64,000 bases of DNA. Source: Gemmatimonadales bacterium. Lineage in GTDB: Bacteria > Gemmatimonadota > Gemmatimonadetes > Gemmatimonadales > GWC2-71-9. This document shows positions 16,136-33,436 of this stretch, in pieces. Below the pieces are notes generated by a model. It had not been told where the DNA came from. It did not search any database and was given only the letters and a program-made list of their open reading frames with translations. Position numbers and translations under genes: made by a program. The DNA lies in assembly GCA_035602245.1 (NCBI GenBank), contig DATNMO010000022.1, positions 5,836-69,835 on the forward strand, read 5' to 3'. Position 1 is the stretch's first letter, and every line of letters starts with the position of its first letter.

Positions 16136-16999
16136 CTAGTCTCGCGGCGGCTCCTCGCCCTTAGCGACCAGCTCGAGCATCTCCTGACACTTCTTGCCCC
16201 AGGGATTGAATTTGTTGGCCTTGAATCCTTCTTCCCACGTGGTTTTGGCCTTCGCCTGGTCGCCGGCGAACCAGTGTGCGCGGCCCAGCTCGTAGTAGGC
16301 CTCGATCAGGTTGGGCCCGAGCTTGATGGTTTTCTGGAAGAAGGTCTGCGCATCCTCGTACATCTCGCGCTGCAGGTAGACGAGCCCGAGATAGAAATGG
16401 GCGTAGAGCGAGGCTTTCTTGTCGTTGGCGAGCCGGATGGCCTTGGACAGATGCTCGATCGCCTCGCCGAAGATCCGCTTCTTCAGGCAGATGTAGCCGA
16501 CGTTGATGCGCGCCAGCGAGTTCGCGGGCTCCTTCATCAAGACTTTTTGGAAGGTCCCGAGGGCGTCGTCGTAATCCTCGTGCAGCATTTGCGCCCAGCC
16601 GAGCAGCGATTCCGCCTGGGTCTCGCCGGGCGAGAGCTGCAGCGCTCGCTGCAGCGACGAGATCGCGCCGGCGTGGTCGCCGAGCGAGATCAGGCTCCAG
16701 CCCTTCTCGATGAAGGTCGAGGCGCCGATGTGATCGGCATGGACGACGGGGCGTTGGCCGGTGAACTCGGGGGCGGCCGCCTGCTTGGTGTCGGCGGTGA
16801 TCTGCTTGTAGCGATCCACGAGCTGGCGGATTTCATCCTTGAGCTGCGTCAGCTCGCCGAGCATGCCGTCCACTTTCTTGAAGTAGGCGATGATCTCGCG
16901 TTTGGCGGCTTCCCGCTCGGCTGTGCCCGGCGCCCCGTCGAGCTGACGCGCGATGGCATCGTATTCCCTTCGCAGGACCATGATCGGCGACTCGGTCAT
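16136..16999 (-). CDS. Coiled-coil + TPR protein, last gene of the Che/Mgl operon
   Basis: 287 aa. N-terminal coiled-coil (LGELTQLKDEIRQLVDRYKQI), then about 5 TPR units (AISSLQRALQLSPGETQA..., AQTFFQKTIKLGPNLIEAYYELG). The ATG overlaps the cheW stop (ATGA). Confidence 0.8.
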   Translation of the reverse strand: MTESPIMVLRREYDAIARQLDGAPGTAEREAAKREIIAYFKKVDGMLGELTQLKDEIRQLVDRYKQITADTKQAAAPEFTGQRPVVHADHIGASTFIEKGWSLISLGDHAGAISSLQRALQLSPGETQAESLLGWAQMLHEDYDDALGTFQKVLMKEPANSLARINVGYICLKKRIFGEAIEHLSKAIRLANDKKASLYAHFYLGLVYLQREMYEDAQTFFQKTIKLGPNLIEAYYELGRAHWFAGDQAKAKTTWEEGFKANKFNPWGKKCQEMLELVAKGEEPPRD

Positions 17000-17460
17000 G
17001 TCGCTCCTTGCAGCGCCAGCTTTTCCTTGGACGTCAGCAGTTTGTTGGTGTTGAGCACGATGATCGTACGCCCGTTCTTGACGACGAGCCCGGTGATGTA
17101 CTCGGCCGCGAGTCCCTTGACGATGCCGGGCGGCGGCGTCACCTCCTGCGCGGGGACCTGCATCACTTCCGTGACTGCATCCACGACGATGCCGATTTTG
17201 CCGCCTTCGAATTCGAGGATCATGGTGCGCGTATCGTCGCGCAGCGGCGCCGCCGCGCCGAGGCGCTTGCGCAGATCCACCAACGGCACGGCGCCGCCTT
17301 GATACCGGAGAATGCCCTCGAGATACTCCGGCGCCTTCGGGAGCGGCGCCGGCGCCTCGTATCGCAAGATGCGCTCCACTTGAAAGATGTTGAAGCCGAA
17401 GTCCTGGCCGCCCACCTTGAAGGTGACCAATTGAACGTCGTCGCCGGCGGTGGTCGTCAC
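16996..17460 (-). CDS. cheW: Chemotaxis coupling protein CheW
   Basis: CheW-domain sequence VQLVTFKVGGQDFGFNIFQVERILRYE...LEGILRYQGGAVPLVDLRKRLG. Start chosen at GTG 17460-17458 (GTGA overlap with the upstream cheW-like stop). The ORF-track start at 17538 adds 26 Arg/Gly-rich residues. Confidence 0.85.
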   Translation of the reverse strand: MTTTAGDDVQLVTFKVGGQDFGFNIFQVERILRYEAPAPLPKAPEYLEGILRYQGGAVPLVDLRKRLGAAAPLRDDTRTMILEFEGGKIGIVVDAVTEVMQVPAQEVTPPPGIVKGLAAEYITGLVVKNGRTIIVLNTNKLLTSKEKLALQGAT

Positions 17461-17864
17461 GCGAGCCGGTCCCCCAGCGCGTCCAGGTCGAGGATTGGCA
17501 CGAGTGCGCCGCCGTGCTCCGCCACGCCCGCCGCCCACGGCAGCGTCTGGCCCCGCGGCACCGGCAGCGACGGCTCCCGCACTACCGCATCGGCGTCGTC
17601 CACCTCAAAGGCGACCTGCCGCCCCCCTCCCAGTTCGACCAGGACGACGGTGCCGCCAGCCTCCGCGGGGGCCGGGCGGCCGGTGAGAAACGCCCCCAGA
17701 TGGATCAGGGGCACGAGGCGCCCGCGCAGCGGCGTGAGCCCGCGGACCGCCGGCATCGAACGAGGGACATCCAGCACTTCCTGCGCGTCCCCCACCTCGA
17801 GCACCTTGGCGACGGGCAGACCGTACGACTTGCCCTCCGCGCGCACCAGCAGATAGCCCTTCAT
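17457..17864 (-). CDS. CheW-like domain protein (short, divergent)
   Basis: 135 aa: [21 protein letters not shown]...[21 protein letters not shown] matches the CheW-fold pattern. The ATG overlaps the cheB stop (ATGA). Confidence 0.8.
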
Positions 17865-18982
17865 CGGCGCGGCTCTCTTCCGGTCCTGCGGCGCGCCAAC
17901 TCGGCGCCGACGCGGTCGGCGATCTGGCCGAGTGGCAATACCGCGTCCACGCCGCCCGCCTGCACCGCCGCCACCGGCATTCCCGGAATCACCGCCGACT
18001 CGCGGTCCTGCGCGAGCCCGGTGCCGCCCGCGTCGTGCATGGCGCGCAGCCCGTCGGCGCCATCGCGCCCCATCCCCGTGAGCACGACGCCCACGCCGCG
18101 TGGGCCGAACACTTCGGCGATGGAGCGAAACAGCGGATCGGCCGCGGGACGCACGCCCCAGATGGGCGCGGACTGGTCGAGCGCGATGATGGGGCCGTCG
18201 GGAGCGGAGCGCACCCGCATATGATAATCGCCCGGGGCCACGTATGCCGTGTCGGCCACGACGGGCGCGCCGTCGTCGGCCTCCACCACGCGCAGCTGGC
18301 TCATCGAGTCGAGGCGCTCGGCGAGGCTGCGGGTGAATTTGGGCGGCATGTGCTGGACGATCAGGACGGCGGCGCCACGTCCCGTGGGCAGGCGGGGCAC
18401 GACATCGGTGAGCGCGCGCGGCCCGCCCGTGGATGCGGCAATCCCGACCGCCAGCACGGCGCGGCCGCGCAACGCCAGCTCGGGCGGATGGACCACGGGC
18501 GCGGGCGGCCGCGCCAGGACCTTCACGTGCGAGAGGTCGGCCGCGAGGGCGCGCCGCACCGCGGTGATGAGCTGGGGCGCGAGCGCCGCAAGCGCCGCCC
18601 GGGGGGAAGAGGAGCCTGCAATATCTGGTGGCGGCTTGGCGACGATCTCGACCGCGCCGAGCTCGAGGGCGCGGATCGCGGTGGCAGTGCCGGGGCCCGC
18701 GTGGGCGCTGACCACGACGATGGGGCGCGGCGATTCGGACATGATGTACCCGATGGCGCCCAGGCCGTCGAGCTCTGGCATCTCGAGGTCGAGCGTCACG
18801 ACGTCGGGGTTGTACTGGTGAATCTTGCGGATGGCGTCCACCCCATCGCGGGCGGTGGCCACGACGCGGAACTCCCCGGTATCCGCGTCCCCACCCCCCA
18901 GCACGTCCACCAGCACGCGCCGCATCAGTGCGCTGTCGTCGGCGACGAGTACCGTGGGCCGGCGATCAGATGACGTGCTCAT
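17861..18982 (-). CDS. cheB: Chemotaxis response regulator protein-glutamate methylesterase CheB
   Basis: REC domain ([13 protein letters not shown]...[13 protein letters not shown]) plus methylesterase motifs [28 protein letters not shown]. Start taken at ATG 18982 ([13 protein letters not shown]), overlapping the cheD end by 17 nt. Confidence 0.9.
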
Positions 18983-19448
18983 CGGCTCCCACCGAGCGGA
19001 TCTCGACCCGGCCGTCCTGCACGTGAAAGCGCACGGAGCGGCCGCGCTCACCGCCCACCGCCTCGCGCAGGATGGGGATTTCGGCGGCGCGCAGGGCGTT
19101 GCGCGCCGCCACGACGTTGCGCTCGCCCATCTGAATCGTGCCGGGCGTCATCAGCTGGCTGAACATGCTGGCGCCCCCCGCGAGCTTGGCGACGAGGCGG
19201 CGCGGATCGGCGCCCAGTGCCTTGAGGCGCTCGACGAGCAGCGGCACCGCGGATTCGGGAAACTTCGCGGGGTTGCTCGCGTCATGCGCGAGGCTCTTGG
19301 ACGGCAGCAGGACGTGCGCCATCGCGCCGGACTTGCTGGTGGGGTCGTGCAGCATGATGGCGACGCAGGAGCCGAGGCCCAGCGTGACCAGTACCCCATC
19401 GCCGCGCTCGGCGGCCCATTCGGCGACCTTGACGATGACTTCCTTCAC
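18966..19448 (-). CDS. cheD: Chemoreceptor glutamine deamidase CheD
   Basis: C-terminal 160 aa of the 396-aa ORF: [18 protein letters not shown] (catalytic Cys), AHVLLP, GGASMF. GTG 19448-19446 overlaps the cheR stop (GTGA). The remaining upstream ORF is Arg/Pro-rich and overlaps cheR. Confidence 0.88.
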
Positions 19449-20260
19449 GGCGCAGTTGGTCTCGTATAGATCCGCTCCCGCGGGTCTACGAGGGTGAGAC
19501 GCTCGCGTGCCGGTCCGAACAGGGTCTCGACTTTCCCGAGCAGGAGCACACCGCCCGGCGCGAGCGCGTCCACGAACACCTGGAACAGCCGCTCCTGGGC
19601 CTGGCGCTCGAAATAGATCACGACGTTGCGGCACACGATCAGGTCGTACGGCGGACGCGGCGGCGGCTCCCGCATCAGGTCGTGGGCGAGGACGTGGACG
19701 AGGGCGCGGACCCCGGGCGCCGGCTGCCCGCCCGAGAAATACCGGCGCTTCAAGTCCGCCGGCATTTCGCTGAATGCGCCGTCGGGGTATTGGGCCTGGC
19801 GGGTGCGCTCGAGGCTCAGGCGGTCCACGTCGGTCGCGTCCACGAACGCGTGCTCGAGGGAATCTGTGCCCGCGGTCTGGGCGATGAGCATGGCGATCGT
19901 GTACGGCTCCTCGCCCGAGGCGCAGCCTGCGGACCAAACGCGGAGCCGCCCGCGCTGGGCGCGCCACAACGCCGCGAGATGCGGCCCCAGCGCGTTCCAC
20001 GTCTCGGCGTTGCGGTAGAACTTGGTGACGTTGATGGTGAGCGCGTCGAGCAGCTCTTGGTACTCGTGCGCGTCCTGATCCAGCAGCCGACTGTAGTCGT
20101 CGTAGGTGTGCACGCCGCGGGCGCGCATGCGCACCGCGATGCGGCGTTTCAAACACTTGTCCTTGTACGACTCGCAGCTCACTCCCCGCGTCGCCGAGAT
20201 CTTTTGCGTCAGCGCCCGGAACGCGCGCTCGTCCTGCGGTCCGCCTCCTGCCGAACTCAC
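19445..20260 (-). CDS. cheR: Chemotaxis protein methyltransferase CheR
   Basis: 271 aa. N-terminal helical domain (YKDKCLKRRIAVRMRARG, TINVTKFYRN) and SAM domain (RVWSAGCASGEEPYTIAM, DLIVCRNVVIYF). The GTG start overlaps the upstream stop (GTGA). Confidence 0.9.
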   Translation of the reverse strand: MSSAGGGPQDERAFRALTQKISATRGVSCESYKDKCLKRRIAVRMRARGVHTYDDYSRLLDQDAHEYQELLDALTINVTKFYRNAETWNALGPHLAALWRAQRGRLRVWSAGCASGEEPYTIAMLIAQTAGTDSLEHAFVDATDVDRLSLERTRQAQYPDGAFSEMPADLKRRYFSGGQPAPGVRALVHVLAHDLMREPPPRPPYDLIVCRNVVIYFERQAQERLFQVFVDALAPGGVLLLGKVETLFGPARERLTLVDPRERIYTRPTAP

Positions 20261-21873
20261 GACAGCGTGCTCAAGGTGTCCAGATTGGCTTTCACGAGTT
20301 CGTGCTTGGGGTTCAGCTCGAGCGCCCGGCGCCAGAGCTCGCTCGCCTGCTCACGGGCGTTTCGCTTGTAGGCGATGTTGCCGAGCTTGAAGAAGACGTC
20401 GTCGCCCAAGTCGGGCGCCAGCTCGACGGCGCGCTGGTAGAGATCCCATGCCTCGTCGTAGCGCGAGCCGCGGTAGGCCAGGTCGCCCAGGTTCTTGGAT
20501 AGCTGGGGCAGTGACGGCTCGTCCTGGAGCGCCGCACGCGCCAGCTCCTCGGCCGCCGGCAGGTCGCCGGCGAGCTCGCGGAGCACTGCGAGGTTGTTGC
20601 GGAGCACGGCGTTCTGGGGATGCGCCTCTACAGCCTGCGCGGCCACCTGCTCGGCCATCTCGAAGTCCCCCGCCGCCGCGGCGGTGAGCACGCGCGCCCA
20701 GTACCAGAGAGGCGGAACGTTCTCGGCGAACAACTCCTTGGCGCGGTCGAGCCGGCCCGCCGCGCTGGCGTGATCCCCCAGCTTCAGCGCGACCACTCCC
20801 CACCCCACGTACACGCGCGGATCGGTGCGCGCGCGCGTCGCCGCTTCGGCGTATGCCGCCTCCGCATCCTCGAGACGCCCCAGCTGCTCGAAGGCGAGTG
20901 CGAGGTTGTGGAGCACGGCGGGCCGGGAACCGCCCTTTTCGGCGGCGAGCCGCAGCGCCTCCATCGCCTCGCGCCAGCGCGCTTGCTTCAGCGCCACCAG
21001 CCCGATGAAGAAGTGCGCGTTGGCGTCGGTCGAGCGCAGCTCGGCCACGCGGCGGAACTCGCGCGCCGCTTCGTCCAGCATGCCCGTCTTGTAGAAGGCG
21101 ACGCCGAGATTACGGTGCTCCTCGACGCGCGCGTCCGTCATCTTCAGGTCTTCGGCGCTGGCGGTGCGGCCGGCGCGGTGCAGGAACCCCGCCGTCACGA
21201 GGCCGTACAGCGCCTTACCGACTTCGAACTCGCCGAGCCCCGAGTCTTCGATGGTCTGATTCACGTCGCGCGAGCCGTCGAGCAGCGGCAGCAGCCGCTC
21301 CTGCATTTCCGTCAATTTCGCATCGCTGATGGCGAGCCGGTCGCGGTCCACGACGAAGATCAGGTCGAACGAAGGGATCTTCTTCTCGATCAGGCTCCAC
21401 TCGTCCACCCGCCGGGCGCCCTCGAGCAGCAGCGATTCGGGGTTGATGGAGACCAGGAAGTCCTGCTGTTCGGGGCGGACGTCGGCCTCGAAGTTGAAGG
21501 TCCCCTGCGTCCACGTGAACAGGTAGTAGACCGACTCCTCGATCTGAATGCGCATGTAGCGCTCCAGCTCCTGCTGCGAGATCACGTTTTGGCCGACGAG
21601 AATCTCGCCCAGCTTTTTGTCGCGCTCCTTGGCCTGGCGGTGGATGGCGGCGTCGAGCTGTTCCTGGCTGATCTTCGCGTGCTTGACGAGGATGTCGCCG
21701 AGCCGGTCGCGGCGGTTGACGATCGACGCGTAGCAGATCCGGCCCTTGTCGAAGTAGATGTATCCGAAGTTCGAGCGGTCGGCGATCGACAGGCAGCCCG
21801 TTTTCTGCCCCAGCGCGAGCAGCTGCAGCACGTCGGGGAGCGACGCCTCTTTGAGCGAGCCCTTGATGGCCAT
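20257..21873 (-). CDS. PATAN/DUF4388-domain protein with GspE-N-like motif and C-terminal TPR array (paralog a)
   Basis: 538 aa. N-terminus [30 protein letters not shown]...GYIYFDKGRICYA is DUF4388/PATAN-like. LGDILVKHAKISQEQLDAAIHRQ...LGEILVGQNVISQQELERYM resembles the T2SS-E N-terminal (MshEN-type) repeat. About 7 TPR units follow. Confidence 0.8.
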   Translation of the reverse strand: MAIKGSLKEASLPDVLQLLALGQKTGCLSIADRSNFGYIYFDKGRICYASIVNRRDRLGDILVKHAKISQEQLDAAIHRQAKERDKKLGEILVGQNVISQQELERYMRIQIEESVYYLFTWTQGTFNFEADVRPEQQDFLVSINPESLLLEGARRVDEWSLIEKKIPSFDLIFVVDRDRLAISDAKLTEMQERLLPLLDGSRDVNQTIEDSGLGEFEVGKALYGLVTAGFLHRAGRTASAEDLKMTDARVEEHRNLGVAFYKTGMLDEAAREFRRVAELRSTDANAHFFIGLVALKQARWREAMEALRLAAEKGGSRPAVLHNLALAFEQLGRLEDAEAAYAEAATRARTDPRVYVGWGVVALKLGDHASAAGRLDRAKELFAENVPPLWYWARVLTAAAAGDFEMAEQVAAQAVEAHPQNAVLRNNLAVLRELAGDLPAAEELARAALQDEPSLPQLSKNLGDLAYRGSRYDEAWDLYQRAVELAPDLGDDVFFKLGNIAYKRNAREQASELWRRALELNPKHELVKANLDTLSTLS

Positions 21874-23831
21874 CAGCGCAACTCCTCGATGACGCGGTCA
21901 GCCGGCGAGGGCCAGTCCCACACCATTTTCTCGCGGCTGCGGACCCCGCCGGCGCTCGACACCACGATGCCGCTGGTGCGGAGACCAGTCGTGCGACGGG
22001 CGGCAGGCGCGCCTTCCAGCACCTCGCGCGCGAGTCCCGCCGACACCGGCGAATCCTGCGCCGCGGCCGCTTCCACCACGCGCTGCACCAGCCCAGTCAG
22101 GCTGCGCACCGAGTCGGTGGGACGGTCGGCGAGATAGTCGCGCAGCGCCGGGTCCGCCGGCACCCGGTGCTGCTTCAAGAGCGGCTCCAGCGCGGCGCGG
22201 CGCAGCTCCCGGTCCGGCTCGCCGATTTCCGCCACCAGCCCGCCCTCGAGGCGGGAGGCAATCCGCTCTTCCAATCCAGCCAGGGTGTTGGGGTGCGCGG
22301 GCGCGGTGAACACCAGCTGGCGGTCGGCATCCAGGAACTGGTTGAAGAGATTGAACAGCTCTTCCTGGGTCCGTTCCTTGCCGGCGAGCAGGTGAATGTC
22401 GTCGAGCAGCAGCGCCGTGGCGCGACGGTAGCGCGCGCGCCACCAGTTCACGCGGTTGCCGTCGATTGCGGCGATCAATTCGTCCACGAACGCCTGAGTC
22501 GAGAGGCAGGCGACCACAGCGCCTTTTTTCTTGGCCAGCTCGATGCCGATCGCGTTCAGGAGGTGGGTTTTCCCGAGACCGCTCCGTCCCACCAGCACGA
22601 GCGGATTGTACTTCTTGCCCGGCGCGGCGATCACGGCGCGGGCCGCCTTGACCGCGACTTCGTTCGACGGTCCCGACGCGTACCCGTCGAGCGGGAAGGC
22701 AGCGGACGGGGCCGGCGGCGGCGCCGCGCCCTCGCGGACCGTGGCCGCCGCCGCTTCTGCTTCCTCCAGGCGATCGGGATCGTGAAACACCTTGCCCCCC
22801 GCGGTCTGGGGATCGAGCGCCGTGACTTCCGCCTCGAGCGCCTTGAGACGCTCGACGTCCTGCACGTAGGCGGCGATCGCTTCGTCCACGGCCGCGGGCG
22901 TATCCTGATCGAGCAGCTTCTCGAGGCGGGCCGTGCGGTAGCCTTCACCTTCCCAGCGCAGCACGGCCTCCGCCACGCGCGCGCGCCACGCCTCCACGGC
23001 TTTGCCGACCGTGACGGTGACGTCGCTCAGGAACTGCGAGAATTCGTCGGCACCCGAAGCGCGGCCCGGCGCCTCGGTCGGCGCACTGCTCCCTGCTCCC
23101 TGCTCCCCGCTTCCGCTTACTCCCAGCACCTGACGCGCCGCTTCGGCATTGATCGGCGTGTCGTTCACCGCCTGGTAGGCGACGATCCGGTTGAGCGCGC
23201 CCATCAGCTCGCGCACGTTGGGAAACGCGATCTTGGCGACGGCCTCGAGCACGCCCGGCTGGAACGACGTACCGCGCTCTTCGGCCTTGCGCCGCAGGAT
23301 CGCCACGCGCGTCTCGTAGTCGGGCACGCCCATGTCCACGACCAGCCCGCCCGAGAAACGGGAGATCAGGCGCTCGTCCAGGTCCGCGATTTCGGCGGGC
23401 GGGCGGTCGCTTGCCAGCACGATCTGATGGCCGGCCTGCTGCAGCGCCTCGGTGAGCCGCAGCAGCTCCGCCTGCATCTCTTTGCGGTTCGTGAGAAACT
23501 GGACGTCGTCCACGAGCAGCGCGTCCACGTTCTGGAACCGGCGCCGGAACACGTCCCCCTGCCCCGCCGCGATCGCGGCGTGGAACGCCTCCACGTACTC
23601 GTCCAGCGTCAGGTATTCGATGTTGAGCTTGGGGGCGAGCGTCTTGGCGGCGTGCCCGATGGCCATCAGGAGGTGCGTCTTGCCCAGGCCGGAGCCGCTA
23701 TAGATGAACAGCGGGTTGTACGCCGACCCGGGATTCTCCGCGACGGTACTGCCCGCCGTCACCGCGAGCCGGTTTGCCGCGCCCACGACGAACGTATCGA
23801 AGCTGAAGCGCGGATTCAGGGTGCTGGTCAT
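21873..23831 (-). CDS. Tandem DnaA-like AAA+ ATPase (two DnaA domain-III modules, no domain I/II and no domain IV)
   Basis: 652 aa. Module 1 (aa 1-235): [19 protein letters not shown], Walker A GSGLGKTH, Walker [49 protein letters not shown]. Module 2 (aa ~378-605): [72 protein letters not shown]. No HTH or DnaA-signature segment is recognisable. ATGA-coupled to mglA. Confidence 0.85.
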
Positions 23832-24901: not shown

Positions 24902-25242
24902 ACGACCATCTCCGCGGCGCGCAGCAGCTCGAGCCGCACGAGGCCGATGTTCACGTCGGGCTCGGCGACGGCCACGACGAGGATTCCTCCCGCGGAGGTC
25001 CCCGGCACGACCAGCAACGCGCCACGCTCTCCCTGGAGATGCCAGAACACGCTCACCCCGATGCCTGCCGCCTCCATCGCGCGGCGCAGCCGCCCCGCGA
25101 GGCTCGCGGCCAGCGCCGCCACCGCGCCGCCCTTGATGCCTTCCATCAGTTGTTCGGCGACGACGAGCCCGTCGTCGGCCGAGACGAGCATGGCGCCGCG
25201 CACGCCGCGCACGCGGGTGATGAGGTCCAGGGCGGCGCTCAC
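24898..25242 (-). CDS. Roadblock/LC7-domain protein
   Basis: 114 aa: LDLITRVRGVRGAMLVSADDGLVVAEQLMEG...ERGALLVVPGTSAGGILVVAVAEPDVNIGLVRLELLRAAE is canonical Robl_LC7 layout. The GTG start overlaps the upstream stop (GTGA). Confidence 0.75.
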   Translation of the reverse strand: MSAALDLITRVRGVRGAMLVSADDGLVVAEQLMEGIKGGAVAALAASLAGRLRRAMEAAGIGVSVFWHLQGERGALLVVPGTSAGGILVVAVAEPDVNIGLVRLELLRAAEMVV

Positions 25243-26093: not shown

Positions 26094-27270
26094 GGCTGCC
26101 CGCCCGCATAGCCAGGAACACCCGCGCCGCATCGCGCGCGCGCTGCACCTCCTCGATCTGCGTCAACTCGTCCGGGCTGCGGGGGGCGAGCCGCTCCCAC
26201 TGATCCCAGCTCTCGAGGGCCTCGCCGAACCGGCCGATCGCCACCAGGGCGAACCCGAGGTGCCGGTGCGCCGCGGCGAGCAGCGGATCGAGCCGCAGCG
26301 CGCGCCGCAGCTCCTCGACGCCGGGGGCGCCGCGGCCCTGCGCCAGATGGATGCGGCCGAGCAACAGGTGCACGGTCGCGTCGTGCGGCTGCGTGTTGGC
26401 CGCCTGCTCGGCGGCCGCGCGCGCCCCGTCGAAGTCTTTCGCCTGCAGCGCCTGTTCGGCTTTCGCGACCAGCTCCGCGAGATCGGCCAGCGCGCTTCCC
26501 CCTCCTCCTGCTCCGCCCGCCCCCCCGCGGCCACGCTTGGCCGTGCCCGGATCCACCAGCACGATGACACCGGCGCTCTCCAACCCGAACAGCGTCTTGG
26601 CGACCTCGAAGTCCGAACGACCGAGCTCGGTGGCGAGGGCGCGCACGGCGCGCTGCCCGTCGATGAGCGCCAACACTTCCCACTCGGGCGGCAGCAGGTC
26701 GAGCTCACCGCCCGGACCCTCGGGCGGCGGCGCCAGCGACGGTACAACCCCCACATGTGGAATGCGGTTCTCGATCCGTGCCCATTCGTCGATGCGGCGC
26801 GCGCCTTCCATTAAGAGCGCCTCCACCGGAATCCGCACCTCGGCGCCGCTGGGCACCTCCCGCTCGGGTTCCTCGTTGAACGAGAAGTACCCCTCGTTCC
26901 AGCTCATCACCTCGAACACGACTTCCTCGATCTGGAAGCGCACCTGGCGCTCCACCTCGCGCTGCGTGATCACGCCAAGGGCCACCAGGATCTCGCCGAG
27001 GCGGCGCTTGTCGCCCTGGCGCTGCTGCATGTCGCGGGCACGCTCGAGATCGGCTTCCGTGATCTTGCCGGTGCGCAGCAGCAGGCCCCCGAGGGGATGC
27101 GGATTGCTGCGGATCTCCGCGAACACGATGACGCCATTGTCGAAATAGATCGTGCCCTGGTTGTGCCGCAGCTCCGAGGTCACGCGCAGCGCGCCCGTCT
27201 TGCGGCTCAAGTCGAGCAGCTGGAAGACGTCGTGGATGCCGAGCTCGCGGAGCGGCCCTTCAATCGCCAT
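26086..27270 (-). CDS. PATAN/DUF4388-domain protein with GspE-N-like motif and TPR tail (paralog b)
   Basis: 394 aa. MAIEGPLRELGIHDVFQLLDLSRKTGALRVTS...GTIYFDNGVIVFA (DUF4388), LGGLLLRTGKITEADLERARDMQ...LGEILVALGVITQREVERQV, then a second DUF4388-like segment (EWEVLALIDGQRAVRALA...) and 3 TPR units. Same architecture as 20257-21873. Confidence 0.8.
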   Translation of the reverse strand: MAIEGPLRELGIHDVFQLLDLSRKTGALRVTSELRHNQGTIYFDNGVIVFAEIRSNPHPLGGLLLRTGKITEADLERARDMQQRQGDKRRLGEILVALGVITQREVERQVRFQIEEVVFEVMSWNEGYFSFNEEPEREVPSGAEVRIPVEALLMEGARRIDEWARIENRIPHVGVVPSLAPPPEGPGGELDLLPPEWEVLALIDGQRAVRALATELGRSDFEVAKTLFGLESAGVIVLVDPGTAKRGRGGAGGAGGGGSALADLAELVAKAEQALQAKDFDGARAAAEQAANTQPHDATVHLLLGRIHLAQGRGAPGVEELRRALRLDPLLAAAHRHLGFALVAIGRFGEALESWDQWERLAPRSPDELTQIEEVQRARDAARVFLAMRAGSHG

Positions 27271-27283
27271 TGGGCGCCATCCC

Positions 27284-30013
27284 TCAGGCCGCGTCCGACG
27301 TGGAAAAGATGTGCTGCAGGTCGAGCGCCGTGCGCGCGTGCATGCGCGCGCGCTGGGCGTACGGCCCGCCGGGATCGATGCGCGTCACCCGTTCCCAAGC
27401 TTCGACCGCCTCGCCGTAGCTCTGCACACGGGCGAGCGTGGCGCCGAGGTAGAACAGCGCCCCGGTGTGCTCGGGATCGAACTTGAGGGCGCGGCGGAAT
27501 GCCTCGAGCGCCTCGGCGTTGCGTTTATCGTCGAGCAGCGCGCGCCCCAGCAGCAGCAGCGCGTCGAGGTCGTAGGGGTCCTGCTCCAGCATCTCGGCCA
27601 GCCGCACGACGGCGTCGCGGAGCCGGCCCGAGCGGCGCAGCAAGTCCGACAGGGCGAGCGCCGCTTCGTGGAACGTAGGCAGGGCCTCGAGCGCCTGCTC
27701 GTAGGCGCGCTGGGCCGGTGCCCACTCCTCGTCCTGCTCGTGCAGGCGTCCGAGGTCCAGCCACACCTGGACGAATCCGTGATCGAGGTCGAGCGCGGCT
27801 TTATACGCCTGCCGCGCCCCTTGTCGATCGCCGACCTTGAGCGCGATGTCGCCCTGGAGCTTGTGCAGATCGGGCCGGGCCGGCGCGCGCGTTTGCGCCT
27901 GCCGCAACGCGGTGAGCGCGCCCGCCGCGTCCCCGACGGCGGCGCGCGCTTTGGCGGCGGCCAGGAGCACCTCGACATCCTCGGGCGCGCGCGCCACCAA
28001 TTCCTCGACGAGCGGCAGCGCTTCCGCGGCCCGTTGGACCGCGAGCAGGCTCTTCACCTCGCCCAGCGCGGCGGCGGCGTTGGCCGCGTCGAGCGTCCGC
28101 GCCTCGCGATAGCGCTCCAGCGCCTCGCCGTGGAGGCCACGCTGCGCATAGATGTCGCCGAGCAGGGTGGCCGCCTGGCCGCGGTCCGCGCCGCGCTGCA
28201 CGGCGCGCATCGCTTCCGCCACCGCGAGGTCCATCATCCCCTTGCTCACGTAGTCGCGTGCCAGCGCGAGCGCATCGTCCTTCGATTTCTGAGCGGCGCC
28301 CTGCGCCGCCGCGCCCTGGGCGGTGCCGGACGATGCGGGCGCGAGCTCCTGGAAAATGTTGTCGAGCAGCCGTTGGTCGAAGGCGAACTCGGTGCCCAGG
28401 TTCTCGGCGGTCACGTCCGCGGAGATCTCGGGGACGATCCCGATCGCCACGGTTTCGTACTGCAGGTCGATCGCCAGCGCGAACTTCTGCGAGACGTAGT
28501 AGGGGTCGAGCTCGAGCGCGCGCTTGGTCGCCCGCAGCGCGCCGTCGAAATCGCCGAGGTTCGAGAGCGTGAAGCTCAAGTTGTAGTGGGCACCCGCATT
28601 CTGGGGATCCGCCTCGACCGCGCGCACGAATGCGTTGCGGGCGTCCGGAAACCGCTTCAGCTCGACGAGCACGAGGCCCACGCCGTTCCAGGCGGGAGCC
28701 GACGTCGGATGGTCGGCGAGCACCTGGCGGTAGGCCTCGAGGGCCAGCTGGAAGCGGCGCAGGTGCGTCAAGAGCAGCGCGAGGTTGAGCCGCGCGCCCA
28801 CGAACCCGGAGGAGAGCTGCAGCGCGCGCCGGAATGCCTCAATCGCGTCCTCGGTGTCGCTCTGGTGGGCGAGCACGACCCCGACGTTGTTCCACGCCAG
28901 GGCGTAGCGCGGGTCCACCTCCGCCGCCTGGCGGTAGGACGCGAGCGCGTCGGCGGTGCGGCCGGCCTGATGCAGGACCACGCCACGCTCGTTCCACAGT
29001 TTGGGAGAGTCCGGCACGTCGTGGATCAGCGACTCGTACAGGTCCAGCGCGTCCGCGAAGTCGCGCTTCAGCAGGTGGACCTCCGCCATGGCCTGGCGCA
29101 CGAGGCGGCGGTCTTCGCCCCGCTCGATCGCGAGCCTGTATTCGCGCAGCGCCTCCGCGTAATAGCCCTTCTGGCGGAACGCGAGGCCCAAGTTGTAATG
29201 CGCCAGCTCGCTTCCCTCGGCGACTTCCGGCGCCGGCGCATCGCGCACCCGGTCCTCGGCTGACTGGCGCTCCGCGCGGTAGCGCTCGAGCGACAGGTTG
29301 GTCTGCGCGCGGGCGAGCGGCGGGTTGAGCTGGATGGCCCGCTTCGACGCCGCGCGCGCGTCCTGATGACGGCCCATGTCCCCCAGCACGAACGCCATCA
29401 GGTAGTGCGCGTTGGCGTTGTCGGGGTTCAATGCCACCGCCCGCTCGAGCTCTGCCAGGGCCGGCTCGTTCAGCCCGCGGTTGTAGTAGACCTCGCCCAA
29501 ATAGAAGTGCACGACGCTGGACTCGGGATCCAACTCGACGGCGCGCAGCAGCCAGTCCGTGGCGATCTCCAGGCGGCCCCGGCTCTTCTCGGCGAGCCCG
29601 AGCTGGATCAGGGCCGCCACGTCCTTGGGCTTGTGGGCGAGCAGCTCCTCGAACTCCGCGACCGCTTCGTCGAAAGCGCCGAGGATCGCGTAGGTGCGGC
29701 CCAGCTCCCAGCGCGGCTCGCGCTCGTCGGGCGCCTGCCGGAGCCGCTCCTGCAGCTCGGCGACACGGCGGTCGTAGTAGCCGGTGTTGTGGTAGGAAAT
29801 CTCGAGGTTGCGCTGCGCGACCTGCATCTTGGGGTCGAGCTCGAGCGCGCGCGTGAACTGCTCGATGGCCTCGGGGACGAGGCCCTTCTGGTAGTAGAGG
29901 ACCCCGAGATTGTTATGCGCGCCCGCATCCGACGGATCGATCCGGCGGGCGAAGGATCGGAGAACGGCGAGGTCGCGTTCGGAAACGGGCGGCGTCGCAG
30001 CTGGCGCCGTCAC
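27284..30013 (-). CDS. Large TPR-repeat scaffold protein (909 aa)
   Basis: Nearly the entire length reads as consecutive 34-aa TPR units (NLGVLYYQKGLVPEAIEQFTRALELDPK..., repeated more than 20 times). No signal peptide, TM helix or catalytic motif was seen. GTG start 3 nt after the cheC stop. Confidence 0.85.
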   Translation of the reverse strand: MTAPAATPPVSERDLAVLRSFARRIDPSDAGAHNNLGVLYYQKGLVPEAIEQFTRALELDPKMQVAQRNLEISYHNTGYYDRRVAELQERLRQAPDEREPRWELGRTYAILGAFDEAVAEFEELLAHKPKDVAALIQLGLAEKSRGRLEIATDWLLRAVELDPESSVVHFYLGEVYYNRGLNEPALAELERAVALNPDNANAHYLMAFVLGDMGRHQDARAASKRAIQLNPPLARAQTNLSLERYRAERQSAEDRVRDAPAPEVAEGSELAHYNLGLAFRQKGYYAEALREYRLAIERGEDRRLVRQAMAEVHLLKRDFADALDLYESLIHDVPDSPKLWNERGVVLHQAGRTADALASYRQAAEVDPRYALAWNNVGVVLAHQSDTEDAIEAFRRALQLSSGFVGARLNLALLLTHLRRFQLALEAYRQVLADHPTSAPAWNGVGLVLVELKRFPDARNAFVRAVEADPQNAGAHYNLSFTLSNLGDFDGALRATKRALELDPYYVSQKFALAIDLQYETVAIGIVPEISADVTAENLGTEFAFDQRLLDNIFQELAPASSGTAQGAAAQGAAQKSKDDALALARDYVSKGMMDLAVAEAMRAVQRGADRGQAATLLGDIYAQRGLHGEALERYREARTLDAANAAAALGEVKSLLAVQRAAEALPLVEELVARAPEDVEVLLAAAKARAAVGDAAGALTALRQAQTRAPARPDLHKLQGDIALKVGDRQGARQAYKAALDLDHGFVQVWLDLGRLHEQDEEWAPAQRAYEQALEALPTFHEAALALSDLLRRSGRLRDAVVRLAEMLEQDPYDLDALLLLGRALLDDKRNAEALEAFRRALKFDPEHTGALFYLGATLARVQSYGEAVEAWERVTRIDPGGPYAQRARMHARTALDLQHIFSTSDAA

Positions 30014-30016
30014 GGA

Positions 30017-30634
30017 TCAGGTCAGGCGGATGGCGTCGAAGATGGCCTTGAGGGACGCCAAGTCGGGCAAGAGCAGGAAGTGGCCGCGCAGCCCGTCTTG
30101 GGCATCGATGTTGAACTCCGTCTCGACGCAAAACACGAAGTCCCGGTCGTGCCCGAAGTTCAGGTAGGTCGTCGTGAGGACGGCGGCCGAGACATCCACC
30201 ACCAGGCTCGGCACGGACGGCAACAGCAGCATCCCCATGAACTCCGACAGCGCATTCATGTACGCGCCCGAGAGGATGTTACCGGCTTCCTTGAGGCAGG
30301 ACTGCTCGATGGTCTCGAACGCGCTGGTCGTCCCCAGGGGGCGGCGCAGCAGCATGTCGCACAGCCGCCGCGCCACCGGCTCTGGGAAGAGGAGCAGCGT
30401 ACGCCCCGTGAGGTCCCCCAGCATGTGCATCAGCACGGCAGCGACGACCGCCTGCGGGTCGCCGAGGAGCGAGGGCACCTCCTCGAGCCGCGCGATATTG
30501 ATCTCCGGCACGGAGATCATGATCCGCCGGTTCGTCATCTGCGACAGCGCGGTGGCGGCGTGGCCGGCGCCGATGTTGGCGACCTCCCGCAGGGCGTCGA
30601 GCTGCAGCGCCTTCAGATCGCGGACGTCCTCCAT
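30017..30634 (-). CDS. cheC: CheY-P phosphatase CheC
   Basis: 205 aa with both CheC-type ExxNxxxG sites: LREVANIGAGHAATAL and LKEAGNILSGAYMNAL. Confidence 0.85.
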   Translation of the reverse strand: MEDVRDLKALQLDALREVANIGAGHAATALSQMTNRRIMISVPEINIARLEEVPSLLGDPQAVVAAVLMHMLGDLTGRTLLLFPEPVARRLCDMLLRRPLGTTSAFETIEQSCLKEAGNILSGAYMNALSEFMGMLLLPSVPSLVVDVSAAVLTTTYLNFGHDRDFVFCVETEFNIDAQDGLRGHFLLLPDLASLKAIFDAIRLT

Positions 30635-30646
30635 GCCCTCTCCTCT

Positions 30647-32557
30647 CTACACCAGTCCGGCGGCGTCGAGAATCAGCGCCGGGACTCCGTCGCCCATGAT
30701 CGTCGCGCCGCTGAACACCGGCAGCGTGCCCCGGGGCGCCTGGAACCCCTTCACGACGATCTCCTGCTGGCTGACCATCCCATCCACCACGATGCCCGTG
30801 CACCGTTCGCCCATTTCCAGCACGATCACCGGGCGGCGGGCCGGCGGCGGCGCGGCGTCGGCGGCGACGCCGAGCAGGCTGCGGAGGTGCACGAGCGGCA
30901 CCACGCGATCGCGCAGCACCATCGCCTCGCGGCCTTCCATCGTCGTGATCGCCGTCGTGCCGAATTCGACCGTCTCGGCGACGTAGGTGAGCGGCAGCGC
31001 GTAGCGCTCCGGGCCCACGGCGGCGATCAGCGCGCGCACGATCGCGAGCGTGACGGGCAGGCGCAGCACGAACGTCGTGCCCTTCCCCGGCTGGGTGCGG
31101 ATCTCGATCGAACCGCCGAGCGCGCGGATCCGCGTCATCGCCACATCGATGCCGACGCCCCGGCCCGACACGTTCGTGACGGCGTCCGCCGTCGAGAAGC
31201 CGGGACGTGCGAGCACGCGCAGCAGCGCGTCGTCCGACAACGTTTCGACGTGCGGGCCCACCAGCCCTTCGCGCTTCGCCTTCGCGAGGATCCGCGCGCG
31301 GTCGATGCCGCCGCCGTCATCCGAGATGCTGATCGCGACGCTGGAGCGCTCGCGGACCGCGGCGAGCACGATCTCGCCTTCCGGCTTTTTCTTGCGGCGG
31401 GTGCGCTCGGCGGGCGTTTCGATCCCGTGGTCCACCGCGTTGCGGAGCAGGTGCACCAGCGGGTCGCCCAGCTCGTCGAGGATCGCGCGATCCAGCTCGA
31501 TTTCCTTCCCTTCCACACGGAACGCGATCTGCTTGTGGAGCTGGCGCGCGAGGTCGCGCACCAGGCGCGGGAAGCGATCGAAGACCTGCCACACCGGCGT
31601 CATCCGCGCCTGGATGATTTCGGCTTGCAGATCGGCGGAAAGCCGCGAGATCTGAATGGCGACATCGTCGATCGCGGGTTCCCGGAAGCGCGCCGCCAGC
31701 TCGTTCAGCCGCCCGCGCGCGGTGACCAACTCTCCGATCAGGTCCATGAGCGCGTCGAGCCGCCGCAGGTCCACCCGGATGTGGCGGCCGCGCCCCCCTC
31801 CACCGGCACTCTCCGCCGGCGTCACCTGCCCCTCGTCGCCCCCGCCCTCCCCCGCGACCGTCACCCGCTCCACGTCGCCTACGGACCGGACCGCGGCTTC
31901 GATCGCCGCGGCCGTCGCCGCCGTATCGATGTCGAAGGCGAAGCGACCGTCGAAGTCGTCGGCTTCGAACGCCGAAAGCGGAGGCTGGATGCGTTGCACA
32001 CTGCCCAGGCTCTGCGCTTTGCGGACGATCAGCATGGCGCGCCCGCCCTTGAGCTGCGCCTCGGGACGGAGAATCACGTGAACCGGGCGACCGGCAGCGG
32101 CAGGCGGGGGCGGGGGCGCGAGCGGCTCGGCAGGCTCGGCAGGTTGTGGCTCCCGCGCCGGCGCGGCGCGTGGCGCCAGCCGAGCCACCGCGCGGTCCAG
32201 ATCCGCGACGACGCCGGCCAGATCGGCCTCGCGCTCGCGGTTCGCCACCGCCAGGCCGACGGCTTTCTCGAGCGCGTCGGTGGCGCGGAACAAGAGCTGC
32301 AGCGTGTCGTCCGTCGGAGGGCGGCCGCCGCGCCGCAAGTGATCGAGCAGATTCTCCATGCGGTGGGCGAGATCGGCGACCCGGGCGTAGCCCATGGTGG
32401 CCGCCATGCCCTTCACCGTATGTACCGCGCGGAAGATCCCGCTGACCGGTTCCGGCGAGGCCGGGCGGCGCTCCCACTCGAGCAGCAGCTGGTTGCAGGC
32501 GCTCAAGTGCTCGCGGCTCTCGGCCAGGAACAGCTCGGCGTACTGCGACAGATCCAT
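30647..32557 (-). CDS. cheA: Chemotaxis histidine kinase CheA (P1-P2-like-P3-P4-P5)
   Basis: 636 aa from ATG 32557 (MDLSQYAELFLAES). Hpt His in FRAVHTVKGMAATMG. Dimerisation IRVDLRRLDALMDLIGELV. N-box HLLRNAVDHGIE, G1 DDGGGID, G2 SGRGVGIDV. C-terminal CheW-like P5 (RYALPLTYVAETVEF). The ORF-track start at 32683 overlaps cheY. Confidence 0.92.
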   Translation of the reverse strand: MDLSQYAELFLAESREHLSACNQLLLEWERRPASPEPVSGIFRAVHTVKGMAATMGYARVADLAHRMENLLDHLRRGGRPPTDDTLQLLFRATDALEKAVGLAVANREREADLAGVVADLDRAVARLAPRAAPAREPQPAEPAEPLAPPPPPAAAGRPVHVILRPEAQLKGGRAMLIVRKAQSLGSVQRIQPPLSAFEADDFDGRFAFDIDTAATAAAIEAAVRSVGDVERVTVAGEGGGDEGQVTPAESAGGGGRGRHIRVDLRRLDALMDLIGELVTARGRLNELAARFREPAIDDVAIQISRLSADLQAEIIQARMTPVWQVFDRFPRLVRDLARQLHKQIAFRVEGKEIELDRAILDELGDPLVHLLRNAVDHGIETPAERTRRKKKPEGEIVLAAVRERSSVAISISDDGGGIDRARILAKAKREGLVGPHVETLSDDALLRVLARPGFSTADAVTNVSGRGVGIDVAMTRIRALGGSIEIRTQPGKGTTFVLRLPVTLAIVRALIAAVGPERYALPLTYVAETVEFGTTAITTMEGREAMVLRDRVVPLVHLRSLLGVAADAAPPPARRPVIVLEMGERCTGIVVDGMVSQQEIVVKGFQAPRGTLPVFSGATIMGDGVPALILDAAGLV

Positions 32558-32559
32558 GG

Positions 32560-32922
32560 CTAGCCCAGCACGCGCTGGACGGCTTCGAGCACGCGGGACG
32601 GCTGGAATGGTTTGACGACGAAGTCCTTGGCCCCCGCCTGGATGGCCTCCACGACCAGCGCTTGCTGGCCCATGGCGCTGCACATCAGGATCTTGGCGTC
32701 GGGGTCGTGCTTGACGATTTCCCGGACGGCATCAATGCCCCCCATGTCGGGCATCACGATGTCCATCGTCACGAGATCGGGCTTGAGCTGCCGGTATTTC
32801 TCCACCGCCTGCGACCCGGTTTCAGCCTCACCGACGACCTCGAACCCGGCCTGCGCCAGGATGTCGGTGATCATCGTGCGCATGAAGATCGCGTCGTCAC
32901 AGACGAGAACAGTGTGGCTCAC
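32560..32922 (-). CDS. cheY: Chemotaxis response regulator CheY
   Basis: 120 aa single REC domain: VLVCDDAIFMR, LVTMDIVMPDMGG (phospho-Asp), CSAMG, FVVKPF. GTG start preceded by AAGGAGG. Confidence 0.92.
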   Translation of the reverse strand: MSHTVLVCDDAIFMRTMITDILAQAGFEVVGEAETGSQAVEKYRQLKPDLVTMDIVMPDMGGIDAVREIVKHDPDAKILMCSAMGQQALVVEAIQAGAKDFVVKPFQPSRVLEAVQRVLG

Positions 32923-32932
32923 TGCTCCCTCC

Positions 32933-33436
32933 TTAAGTAGTCATAATCGGGCCCAGTAGCGCCGCGATGTCCAGAACCACGAAGAGCTGTCCGTTGCGCC
33001 GGCCCACCGCTCGCACCAGCGTCGGATCGACGCCCGCGAGCCCAGTGCGATCCTCGAGCGTCGTGTCGCCGACCGCGAGCATATCCATGACCTCGTCCAC
33101 CGTGAAGCCGACGAGCTTGCGGCCTGTTTCTCCTTCGCCTTTCGCTCCCAACTCCAGGATGATCGTCGAGCCTTGCCGCTCCCCGTTTTCCGAGGGAGAG
33201 CCGGGTGGGAGCGGGGGTGCGGGAGTGGGGGGCGACTGCCCCAGAGCACGCCACCCTTCCACGACGGTCACCAGCGTGCCGCGGATATTCACGAGCCCCG
33301 CGACGACCGGGGGCGCGCCCGGAATACGCGTCGTTGGGAGGCGCGGGAGAATCTCCCGCACTTGGTCGACCTCGGCCGCGCAAGCCAGGTTTCCCACACG
33401 GAAAACGAGCAGTCGGGCGAGGCTTGCTTCACTCAT
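32933..33436 (-). CDS. cheW: Chemotaxis coupling protein CheW (third copy)
   Basis: 167 aa from ATG 33436: RLLVFRVGNLACAAEVDQVREILP...VAGLVNIRGTLVTVVEGWRALG is a CheW fold pattern. The start overlaps the rluD stop by 8 nt. Confidence 0.8.
   Translation of the reverse strand: MSEASLARLLVFRVGNLACAAEVDQVREILPRLPTTRIPGAPPVVAGLVNIRGTLVTVVEGWRALGQSPPTPAPPLPPGSPSENGERQGSTIILELGAKGEGETGRKLVGFTVDEVMDMLAVGDTTLEDRTGLAGVDPTLVRAVGRRNGQLFVVLDIAALLGPIMTT

Follow-up and report, generated by a model that had tools for sequence, protein, structure and literature searches.

The wiring from a chemosensory (che) pathway to the small GTPase MglA has been worked out in Myxococcus only, where the genes are dispersed and the connectors FrzX, FrzZ and RomR were hard to find. 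Frz acts there on MglA/MglB, with frz and mglBA at separate loci (PMC4316618). In the actinobacterial conservons (CvnA-D), a single operon joins a histidine kinase to its presumed output, a Roadblock protein and a GTPase of the MglA family (PMC4316618). An association of MglA/MglB with PATAN genes has also been noted before, and the closest mention of the arrangement reported here is a Table S2 entry for GAU_1409 of Gemmatimonas aurantiaca, 'PATAN>MglA>-PATAN>' (PMC4316618). In the che-like Tax systems of cyanobacteria PATAN is an output domain which binds PilB1/PilC (bioRxiv 10.1101/2021.06.11.447907), and MglA of Bdellovibrio has a TPR protein, Bd2492, as its binding partner in a hub at one pole, to which a receptor for cyclic di-GMP (c-di-GMP) also belongs (PMC3983030). 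The subject of this work is an 18-gene cluster of soil Gemmatimonadota, here from a Gemmatimonadales bacterium and located in a stretch of 64,000 nucleotides (nt) that was analysed as a whole (the window; all coordinates are window positions). In this cluster a complete che pathway is interleaved with genes for MglA, three Roadblock proteins, two PATAN-TPR proteins, TPR scaffolds and a tandem DnaA-like ATPase. A preliminary description of this DNA, made from the sequence, knew of no characterised system with this composition. Our literature search agrees: it returned no described system of this kind, only remarks on PATAN-MglA/MglB neighbourhoods, the GAU_1409 entry being the nearest.

The 18 coding sequences (CDS) follow one another on the minus strand from 33436 down to 16136, according to the open reading frame (ORF) listing and inspection of start codons. 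Their 17 junctions, taken 5' to 3' along the operon, are +10, +2, +12, +3, +13, -8, -4, -4, +3, -4, -1, -4, -4, -17, -4, -4 and -4 nt. Eleven of the 17 overlap and the other six gaps do not exceed 13 nt, just as the preliminary description had counted them (18 CDS, junctions of -17 to +13 nt, 11 overlaps). All of its domain labels are likewise borne out by Pfam, PDB or NCBIfam matches, and both gene content and nested order confirm that a GTPase block divides the signalling half of the che genes (cheWYAC) from the adaptation half (cheRDB). The borders between the che genes and the inner module are equally tight: +3 nt from CheC to TPR909, the first protein of the module, and -4 nt from PATAN2, its second PATAN protein, to CheR. 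Nearly the whole 64-kb window consists of minus-strand genes, so co-orientation by itself means little. Close packing also runs on upstream to ileS, with rluD overlapping the first cheW by 8 nt. The first terminator-like site on the coding strand downstream of the cluster was located by a terminator scan at 13026-12999, after the tRNA-Asp gene and before mraW; this hairpin (12999-13026) is the only strong one on that strand. Promoter and terminator scans of the window gave no usable operon boundaries, and the edges of the cluster are functional, not physical. The G+C content is uniform (0.67-0.72 across the window, about 69% throughout), and we rejected a recent horizontal island on account of this uniformity and of the conserved chromosomal slot described below.

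Conservation of the cluster was followed with the tandem ATPase, hereafter AAA2. A one-genome-per-species scan gave 185 relatives, of which 80 were kept (73-90% identity), nearly all from metagenome-assembled genomes (MAGs) of Gemmatimonadales/Gemmatimonadota. The loci were compared by tblastn with all 18 products and the flanks, the related genomes being covered for ±10 kb. Gene order and orientation are identical in 78 of these 80 species-level loci, and all 18 genes are present in the 35 loci which are long enough. Since the flanks (rluD on one side, Peptidase_MA and TPR603 on the other) are conserved too, the close relatives cannot separate function from synteny. Two cluster contigs with 77-78% AAA2 identity (L047 and L056) are filed under Myxococcales and Thermoleophilaceae MAGs; given their full synteny with Gemmatimonadales loci, they are probably mis-binned.

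For distant loci, contigs were matched by exact sequence to 50%-identity representatives, their neighbouring genes were annotated with Pfam and the result was re-checked by tblastn. The nested order suggested for a neighbourhood check by the preliminary description is kept in L083, L089 and L090 as well, whose AAA2 and CheA proteins are only 36-50% and 46-51% identical to those of the window. Such a recurring arrangement is not due to chance. The 18-gene form of this type A, found in the window and in L083 from Gemmatimonadaceae (AAA2 50% identical), reads CheW-CheY-CheA-CheC, then TPR-PATAN-TPR·Roadblock-Roadblock-MglB-MglA-AAA2-PATAN, then CheR-CheD-CheB-CheW-CheW and a final TPR gene. The 16-gene form (L089 and L090, 36-41%) lacks the last two CheW genes, i.e., the second and third CheW of the window. 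Type B (36-38%) is represented by L092 and by L087, whose sequence is truncated at the 5' end, immediately upstream of cheY. It has CheY-CheC followed by the module, the terminal TPR gene standing directly after PATAN2. CheW, CheA, CheR, CheD and CheB are absent from the type B locus, and the phospho-acceptor residues of CheY and both ExxN sites of CheC are intact. Type C (L093, 42%) has the complete nine-gene module and no che genes. Type D (L084, about 32%, low G+C) is CheW-CheY-CheA-(STAND-like ATPase)-CheW-CheC-TPR-PATAN-AAA2; it has no MglA, MglB or Roadblock gene and no adaptation genes. Type E (L081, 33%, a low-G+C MAG) has only a TPR909 orthologue (30% identity, E = 1e-99 by tblastn) directly upstream of AAA2.

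The stable unit in this series is the inner set of nine genes: TPR, PATAN-TPR, TPR-Roadblock, Roadblock, MglB-like, MglA, AAA2, PATAN-TPR and TPR. The last of them, TPR287, is counted to the module because PATAN2 directly precedes it in the variants without CheR/CheD/CheB. A stable module of nine genes with che genes on its flanks describes the cluster better than a che operon into which an Mgl module was dropped, and the oldest core and deepest partnership is TPR909 with AAA2, not che with MglA. In a rough neighbour-joining tree of the ATPase with midpoint rooting, type A occupies three separate clades, type B one clade and type C a lone branch, while types D and E form a deep low-G+C clade. 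With this rooting, the most economical reading has type A as the ancestral state of the high-G+C lineages and a stepwise loss of the che genes, CheY and CheC going last. The tie between che genes and the module would be older than the insertion of the Mgl genes, since L084 joins CheW/Y/A/C to TPR, PATAN and the ATPase without MglA. These variants divide what the preliminary description had claimed. It took the locus for a hard-wired switch from che to MglA, and the nested order is indeed conserved far beyond local synteny; the hard wiring does not hold throughout, as the module stands without che genes in L093 and che genes without MglA in L084. Independent assortment of the che and mgl blocks, which it had named as counter-evidence, is partly seen (L093, L092, L087, L084 and L081), and elsewhere the nested order holds.

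Two of the low-G+C loci have further neighbours. In L084, positions 4035-5923 between CheA and CheC code for a 272-residue AAA_22/STAND-like ATPase and an unusually long CheW-domain protein of 344 residues. In L081, two bactofilin genes (3765-4667) lie about 6 kb upstream of the TPR909 and AAA2 genes in the same orientation. In Myxococcus, SofG, a paralogue of MglA, is scaffolded by bactofilins.

mglA (23828-24427) codes for a small GTPase of 199 amino acids (aa) of the Group-1 type. Over residues 1-196 it aligns with MglA of M. xanthus (PDB 5ymx, 6h17 and 6hjh, E = 7e-73) and of T. thermophilus (3t12, E = 8e-68). It is about 62% identical to the M. xanthus protein and has the same catalytic residues. 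Its motifs are a P-loop, TDRTLFFDF with the intrinsic Arg finger in switch I, YTVPGQ with Thr for Asp in G3 and the catalytic Gln, and NKQD. TDRTLFFDF and YTVPGQ align with R53 and with T78 and Q82 of M. xanthus, respectively, and the orthologues of L086, L092 and L093 are alike. The criteria for Group 1 of Wuichet and Sogaard-Andersen (2015) are similarity, TxxGQ with the Gln and the Arg finger, and an adjacent Roadblock/MglB gene. Judged by them, the product is a true Group-1 MglA, predicted from its intact motifs to hydrolyse GTP. Its earlier assignment to the MglA family was correct, the best PDB match being M. xanthus MglA over the full length. Mean identity of MglA is 91% in close relatives and 75-80% across every Mgl-bearing lineage. 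MglA and CheY (mean identity 96.5% over 48 loci) are the most conserved products of the cluster, as expected of hub proteins with several partners.

The gene directly upstream of mglA, separated from it by 3 nt (24431-24901, 156 aa), codes for a Roadblock protein and putative subunit of a GTPase-activating protein (GAP). Its Pfam Robl_LC7 score is 25.3 bits against a cutoff of 23. The top eight PDB matches are all MglB (the best is 6h5b, E = 1e-6), and it has no other significant PDB relatives. We call it MglB-like, as it does not reach the equivalog cutoff of 200 of the NCBIfam MglB model NF052242 (1.5e-7, 31.6 bits); the name of this model suggests that it was built on Thermus-type MglB. A stand-alone Roadblock/LC7 protein of 114 aa (24898-25242, Robl_LC7 1e-8) and a TPR-Roadblock fusion of 284 aa (25239-26093) are encoded further upstream. 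The fusion matches Pfam TPR families, Robl_LC7 (6e-4) and, at aa 203-277, NCBIfam MglB (7.5e-6). The Roadblock call in this protein is weak in the window at that Pfam E value; it is backed by the NCBIfam match and by the orthologues, whose Robl_LC7 matches carry no mark of weakness.

AAA2 (21873-23831, 652 aa, two Pfam Bac_DnaA matches, 2.9e-101) is built of two copies of DnaA domain III, each with Walker A/B, sensor and box VII-like motifs. Its AlphaFold model (pLDDT 83.8) has AAA+ modules at about aa 1-235 and 375-606, a three-helix linker at aa 263-367, two stretches of disorder and a short helix at the C-terminus. The top Foldseek match is domain III of B. subtilis DnaA (8bv3), with 46% identity and TM 0.95 for module 1. 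The Walker A residues K51/K421 and Walker B residues D108/D477 are invariant in 16 family members with 31-56% identity, and a linker motif DEFxxFL...W...GY.T..L and a C-terminal tail REKMVWxWP...DRxIEE are conserved in the family. Neither Pfam nor the AlphaFold model gives any sign of DnaA domain I or of the DNA-binding domain IV in AAA2, and inspection of its N-terminus by eye found no clamp-binding motif. AAA2 scores 502 bits with TIGR00362, the DnaA equivalog model (cutoff 343.9), because two copies of domain III are present. With TIGR03420 (Hda) it reaches 177.6 bits against a cutoff of 194.8, in module 2 only. The replication initiator DnaA was rejected as an identity in view of the missing domains I and IV and the tandem build, and Hda/HdaA in view of the missed equivalog cutoff and of a tandem in place of a single domain III. 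AAA2 shares domain III modules with DnaA/Hda and differs in their tandem arrangement, the family-specific helical linker, the conserved C-terminal tail, the lack of domains I/IV and a genetic context of TPR, PATAN and MglA genes.

Public databases name members of this family 'chromosomal replication initiator protein DnaA' or 'DnaA/Hda family protein', which by domain composition is a systematic misannotation in Gemmatimonadota genomes and could mislead origin or dnaA calls there. A search among 50%-identity representatives returned dozens of full-length tandem relatives (about 640-700 aa) down to 33% identity. Every relative with a source name is from Gemmatimonadota, to which the family appears to be restricted. 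A homologue search with a Gemmatimonadaceae ATPase returned only MAG or metagenome proteins, none of them tied to cultured strains.

Both PATAN proteins have an N-terminal PATAN domain (DUF4388, PF14332, gathering score 25) followed by TPR repeats. PATAN1-TPR (26086-27270, 394 aa) matches DUF4388 with 3e-32 and 111.7 bits, PATAN2-TPR (20257-21873, 538 aa) with 9e-40 and 136 bits. We rejected a regulator of the PatA type (PATAN-REC), as TPR repeats stand where the C-terminal receiver would be. The alpha-helical insertion of the domain gives an MshEN-type match in both proteins. In PATAN2 it covers tandem motifs at aa 57-108 (nt 21550-21705; NCBIfam NF053729 52.3 bits, cutoff 38), in PATAN1 an MshEN-like insertion at aa 59-112 (nt 26935-27096; 42.8 bits with the same model and cutoff). 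MshEN is a tandem of the 24-residue motif RLGxx(L/V/I)(L/V/I)xxG(L/V/I)(L/V/I)xxxxLxxxLxxQ, in which the residues RLG...LV...L...Q, twice, touch c-di-GMP (PMC5013675). Each motif of PATAN2 deviates from a relaxed MshEN pattern at one position; in PATAN1 the Arg of the first motif is replaced by Pro and the spacer is longer. Key residues of the insertion (in PATAN2, RLG..LV...L...Q and K.G..LV...L...Q) are at least 90% conserved among about 90 orthologous segments. These motifs suggest that both PATAN-TPR proteins probably bind c-di-GMP.

TPR909 (27284-30013, 909 aa, Pfam TPR families) opens the inner module and accompanies the tandem ATPase more faithfully than any other neighbour, with orthologues in L081, L084, L087, L089, L090, L092 and L093. 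The last gene of the cluster codes for TPR287 (16136-16999, 287 aa, Pfam TPR families), whose orthologues in L087, L092 and L093 are 57-68% identical and adjoin PATAN2.

The upstream che half starts with CheW-1 (32933-33436, 167 aa, Pfam CheW 8e-24), the least conserved product of the cluster (mean identity 65% over 46 loci). cheY (32560-32922) is preceded by a strong AGGAGG ribosome-binding site and codes for a single-domain response regulator (120 aa, Pfam Response_reg 1e-31), about 72% identical to CheY of T. maritima (PDB 1tmy, E = 1e-51). CheA (30647-32557, 636 aa) has the P1(Hpt)-P2-P3-P4-P5 architecture (Pfam Hpt, P2, H-kinase_dim, HATPase_c and CheW) without a receiver domain; by Pfam, the only receiver domains of the cluster are those of CheY and CheB. 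The top NCBIfam models for CheA and for CheY are haloarchaeal, and both matches are below the equivalog cutoff. CheC (30017-30634, 205 aa, Pfam CheC 4e-23) is a predicted phosphatase of phosphorylated CheY (CheY~P) with both ExxN active-site motifs. Its top NCBIfam match, below the equivalog cutoff, is the CheC of Thermotogales (3e-48). The downstream adaptation half starts with the CheR methyltransferase (19445-20260, 271 aa, Pfam CheR 6e-43 and CheR_N), which is missing from types B, C and D. It continues with the CheD deamidase (18966-19448, 160 aa, Pfam CheD 7e-29) and the CheB methylesterase with an N-terminal receiver (17861-18982, 373 aa, Pfam CheB_methylest 1e-63 and Response_reg). These are followed by the second CheW (17457-17864, 135 aa, 1e-20) and the third (16996-17460, 154 aa, 2.6e-33). 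The parts of an F1-class system are complete: CheA with P1-P5, CheW, CheY, CheR, CheB, CheC and CheD. Because of the nearest relatives of CheY, CheA and CheC and the presence of CheC and CheD, we class the set, on its sequences, as F1-like, of the Thermotoga/Bacillus/archaeal type; this type usually drives flagella or archaella. Pfam matches of the window products include no methyl-accepting chemotaxis protein (MCP) gene, either in the cluster or elsewhere in the 64 kb.

Types A, B and C share one chromosomal slot, with ileS-dksA-lspA-rluD on one side of the cluster and Peptidase_MA-TPR-mraW-ftsL-ftsI-murE on the other. The slot between the divIVA block and the dcw cluster is kept in L083, L089, L090, L092 and L093. 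In the window the divIVA block (33429-40480) comprises yggS, divIVA, PNP, ileS, a dksA-like gene, lspA and rluD, and the other flank (109-16094) holds the dcw cluster with mraW, an ftsL-like gene, ftsI, murE, murF, mraY, murD, murG, murC and ftsQ. No mraZ was seen upstream of mraW in the window. A Peptidase_MA_2 protein with a C-terminal membrane helix (15282-16094) and TPR603, a lipoprotein-like TPR protein of 603 aa (13140-14951), have their genes immediately downstream of the cluster in types A, B and C and not in D and E; they may belong to the same functional neighbourhood. The TPR603 gene is flanked by tRNA-Val (14986-15059) and tRNA-Asp (13031-13105). After the Peptidase_MA_2 gene there is an ORF for a two-helix membrane protein of 61 aa (15084-15269), with counterparts of 55-63 aa in L083, L090, L092 and L093. 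A gene for a CdaA-type diadenylate cyclase (c-di-AMP synthase; 42835-43725) is located 9 kb upstream on the same strand, near folP and a gene for a TMEM260-like glycosyltransferase.

Compared with Frz and MglA/MglB(/RomR) of M. xanthus, the cluster likewise combines a phosphorelay of the Che type with a Group-1 MglA and its Roadblock-type GAP, which are proposed to set or switch polarity together. The Frz and mgl genes of Myxococcus are dispersed; the che and mgl genes of the present cluster are interleaved. A FrzE-type CheA-CheY fusion, FrzZ and a receptor are missing from the cluster, and we rejected orthology with Frz on these grounds. The cluster has CheC and CheD, and its extra parts are two additional Roadblock proteins, a pair of PATAN-TPR proteins, the TPR scaffolds and the tandem DnaA-III ATPase. 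No domain in the window was annotated as RomR or RomX, for which no dedicated search was made. The cyanobacterial Tax/Pix/Pil systems also encode PATAN proteins in che-like clusters, and the PATAN insertion resembles the N-terminal motif of PilB/MshE. They have PATAN-REC and neither MglA/MglB nor a DnaA-like ATPase, in contrast to PATAN-TPR and a separate single-domain CheY in our case. The hub of MglA, TPR (Bd2492), RomR and CdgA in B. bacteriovorus parallels the combination of MglA, TPR and PATAN proteins with a c-di-GMP motif; it differs in that the genes are dispersed, the Che pathway and MglB are lacking and the receptor is a degenerate GGDEF protein, not of the MshEN type. A conservon has a membrane sensor kinase instead of CheA and a Group 2 GTPase without the Arg finger, and it lacks adaptation enzymes, PATAN, TPR and AAA+ proteins. 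We rejected the identity of the cluster with a conservon, as no DUF742 (CvnC) and no membrane sensor kinase were found by Pfam among the 18 products.

ParC/ParP of Vibrio and PpfA of Rhodobacter sphaeroides cheOp3 are ParA/MinD-type positioning systems in che operons with a CheW-like or receptor partner. Like them, the module places nucleotide-dependent spatial regulators in the middle of a che operon. They are of the ParA/MinD type as opposed to MglA and the tandem DnaA-III ATPase here, and the reduced variants described above keep CheY/CheC, not CheW. Pfam found no match to CbiA, ParA or MinD among the 18 products, and we rejected identity with ParC/ParP or PpfA on account of the missing ParA/MinD-type ATPase. 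Overall, all domains of the cluster are of known kinds, and the AAA2 family is new in its architecture and context. In the literature searched we met no account of a complete che pathway interleaved with such genes, of a set of three Roadblock proteins, of a natural series of reductions, of a tandem DnaA-III ATPase family with an obligate TPR partner or of an MshEN-type motif in these PATAN-TPR proteins near MglA.

Tentatively, and at a little less than an even chance, we read the cluster as an integrated Gemmatimonadota-specific unit, in which a polarity module of MglA, TPR, PATAN and AAA2 proteins responds to CheY~P and c-di-GMP. The input would come from a Thermotoga/Bacillus-type pathway with three CheW, CheA, CheY, the CheC phosphatase and CheR/CheD/CheB adaptation, its receptors being presumably encoded elsewhere. 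This pathway would generate CheY~P, which CheC would reset, and CheY~P would act on the nine-gene cytoplasmic module. TPR909 and TPR287 may serve as scaffolds of the module, the two PATAN-TPR proteins would probably also bind c-di-GMP via the MshEN-type motif, and the Roadblock set (TPR-Roadblock, Roadblock and MglB-like proteins) would regulate MglA. AAA2 is expected to oligomerise in an ATP-dependent manner, as DnaA does. The module could set which pole hosts an active machine, most likely a motility organelle by analogy with the MglA-TPR effectors and with PATAN-PilB binding. What we infer is every contact between proteins, the direction in which the signal runs, the binding of c-di-GMP and the process under control (surface motility, flagellum or division). 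The PATAN and MglA precedents point to a type IV pilus machine as the output. A polar flagellum is also in play, given the flagellum of Gemmatimonas and the flagellar-type CheY, and a division or cell-cycle role is kept alive by the slot beside the dcw cluster and by the DnaA/Hda ancestry of AAA2.

Several facts favour such functional coupling over inert synteny. The split arrangement with its tight borders survived the divergence of the ATPase to 36-50% identity; CheY and CheC stay with the module when the other che genes vanish (L092, L087); the deep lineage L084 again joins CheW/Y/A/C to TPR-PATAN-AAA2. The integrated reading is also supported by MglA, which has all the catalytic features of Group 1 and an MglB-like gene directly upstream, by the c-di-GMP motif above the NCBIfam cutoff in both PATAN proteins, and by the precedents of Frz acting on MglA/MglB, of MglA binding a TPR protein and of PATAN as an output domain, which make the contacts plausible. 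Other facts weigh against an integrated unit. The inner module occurs in the same slot without che genes (L093), and che, TPR, PATAN and ATPase genes occur without MglA (L084), so neither the link of che to the module nor that to MglA is obligatory. Neither PATAN protein has a Response_reg match, unlike the receiver that couples PATAN to CheA in cyanobacteria. The window contains no MCP, pilus or flagellar gene and gives no hint of the output. The whole region from rluD to mraW is syntenic, so adjacency could partly be inertia; CheY is of the flagellar/archaellar type and Gemmatimonas has a polar flagellum, so the flagellar motor may be all that the che genes serve.

The last of these points leads to an explanation which we consider unlikely, if worth weighing: that the che genes serve ordinary flagellar chemotaxis and that the nested NTPase/scaffold block, by analogy with known positioning systems, would position or partition either the chemosensory array or the polar flagellum, or the two together. 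The flagellum of Gemmatimonas is single and polar, and one study saw a calcium-induced CheA of G. phototrophica co-induced with flagellar genes, the locus tag alone not identifying it with the CheA of the cluster (PMC9862903). An F1-like set with CheC and CheD, a CheY so close to that of T. maritima, three CheW paralogues and many TPR scaffolds would fit array positioning. NTPases nested in che operons elsewhere have a positioning role, but the known positioning systems have neither MglA nor a DnaA-like ATPase, and no ParA/MinD-type ATPase is found among the 18 products. The reduced variants also speak against it. They hold CheY and CheC, where a CheW-like array adaptor would be expected, and for this reason we prefer CheY~P feeding the module to array positioning. 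Moreover, the module persists without any che gene at the locus in L093, and the TPR and ATPase pair is found alone in L081. The same variants, types C, D and E, show that the blocks are separable, which is what would be expected if two or three independent systems merely shared an inherited synteny, che being flagellar chemotaxis, the MglA block unrelated to it and the coupling historical. The conserved flanks from rluD to Peptidase_MA, TPR and mraW, and the close packing that reaches the unrelated upstream genes ileS, lspA and rluD, are in line with this. We nevertheless find it rather improbable. No fewer than three deep clades of the ATPase tree retain the split halves, both borders being counted in this argument as overlapping start/stop codons, CheY and CheC remain beside the module where the other che genes have disappeared, and the unrelated lineage L084 again joins che genes to TPR, PATAN and ATPase genes.

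A further explanation concerns the output. Signalling and c-di-GMP may act through the DnaA/Hda-like ATPase on the choice of a division site, on growth at the pole, on budding or on the control of replication. In types A, B and C the cluster always lies between divIVA-ileS-lspA-rluD and the dcw cluster (mraW, ftsL, ftsI, mur), module 1 of AAA2 is 46% identical to domain III of B. subtilis DnaA and module 2 is Hda-like, a bactofilin pair is near the TPR and ATPase genes in L081, and the name Gemmatimonas refers to budding. Yet adjacency to the dcw cluster is context only, AAA2 has neither domains I and IV of DnaA nor, by eye, an N-terminal clamp-binding motif, and the precedents for MglA and PATAN are all motility machines; a cell-cycle or morphogenesis output seems to us improbable. 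Finally, TPR909 and AAA2, the sole part common to all variants, might form a new ATP-driven, self-assembling spatial scaffold derived from a replication initiator, which marks the pole or a cell-cycle state and onto which the MglA switch, c-di-GMP sensing and lastly the full che pathway were layered. This is a speculation to which we assign a distinctly low probability. If true, the cluster would be a three-input polarity computer (phosphorylation, GTP and c-di-GMP) with no counterpart in model bacteria.

Under the integrated reading that we tentatively prefer, the candidate connectors between a che pathway and MglA are found in one conserved cluster, and the gene-loss variants already show which parts go together. 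Coupling of che to MglA becomes testable pair by pair in cultured Gemmatimonas species. We expect the arrangement to be a moderate surprise to specialists. The MshEN-type motif, absent from the preliminary description, implies a c-di-GMP input to the inner module and adds a likely c-di-GMP input to MglA systems, and the cluster defines a phylum-restricted family of tandem DnaA-like ATPases in a non-replicative context.

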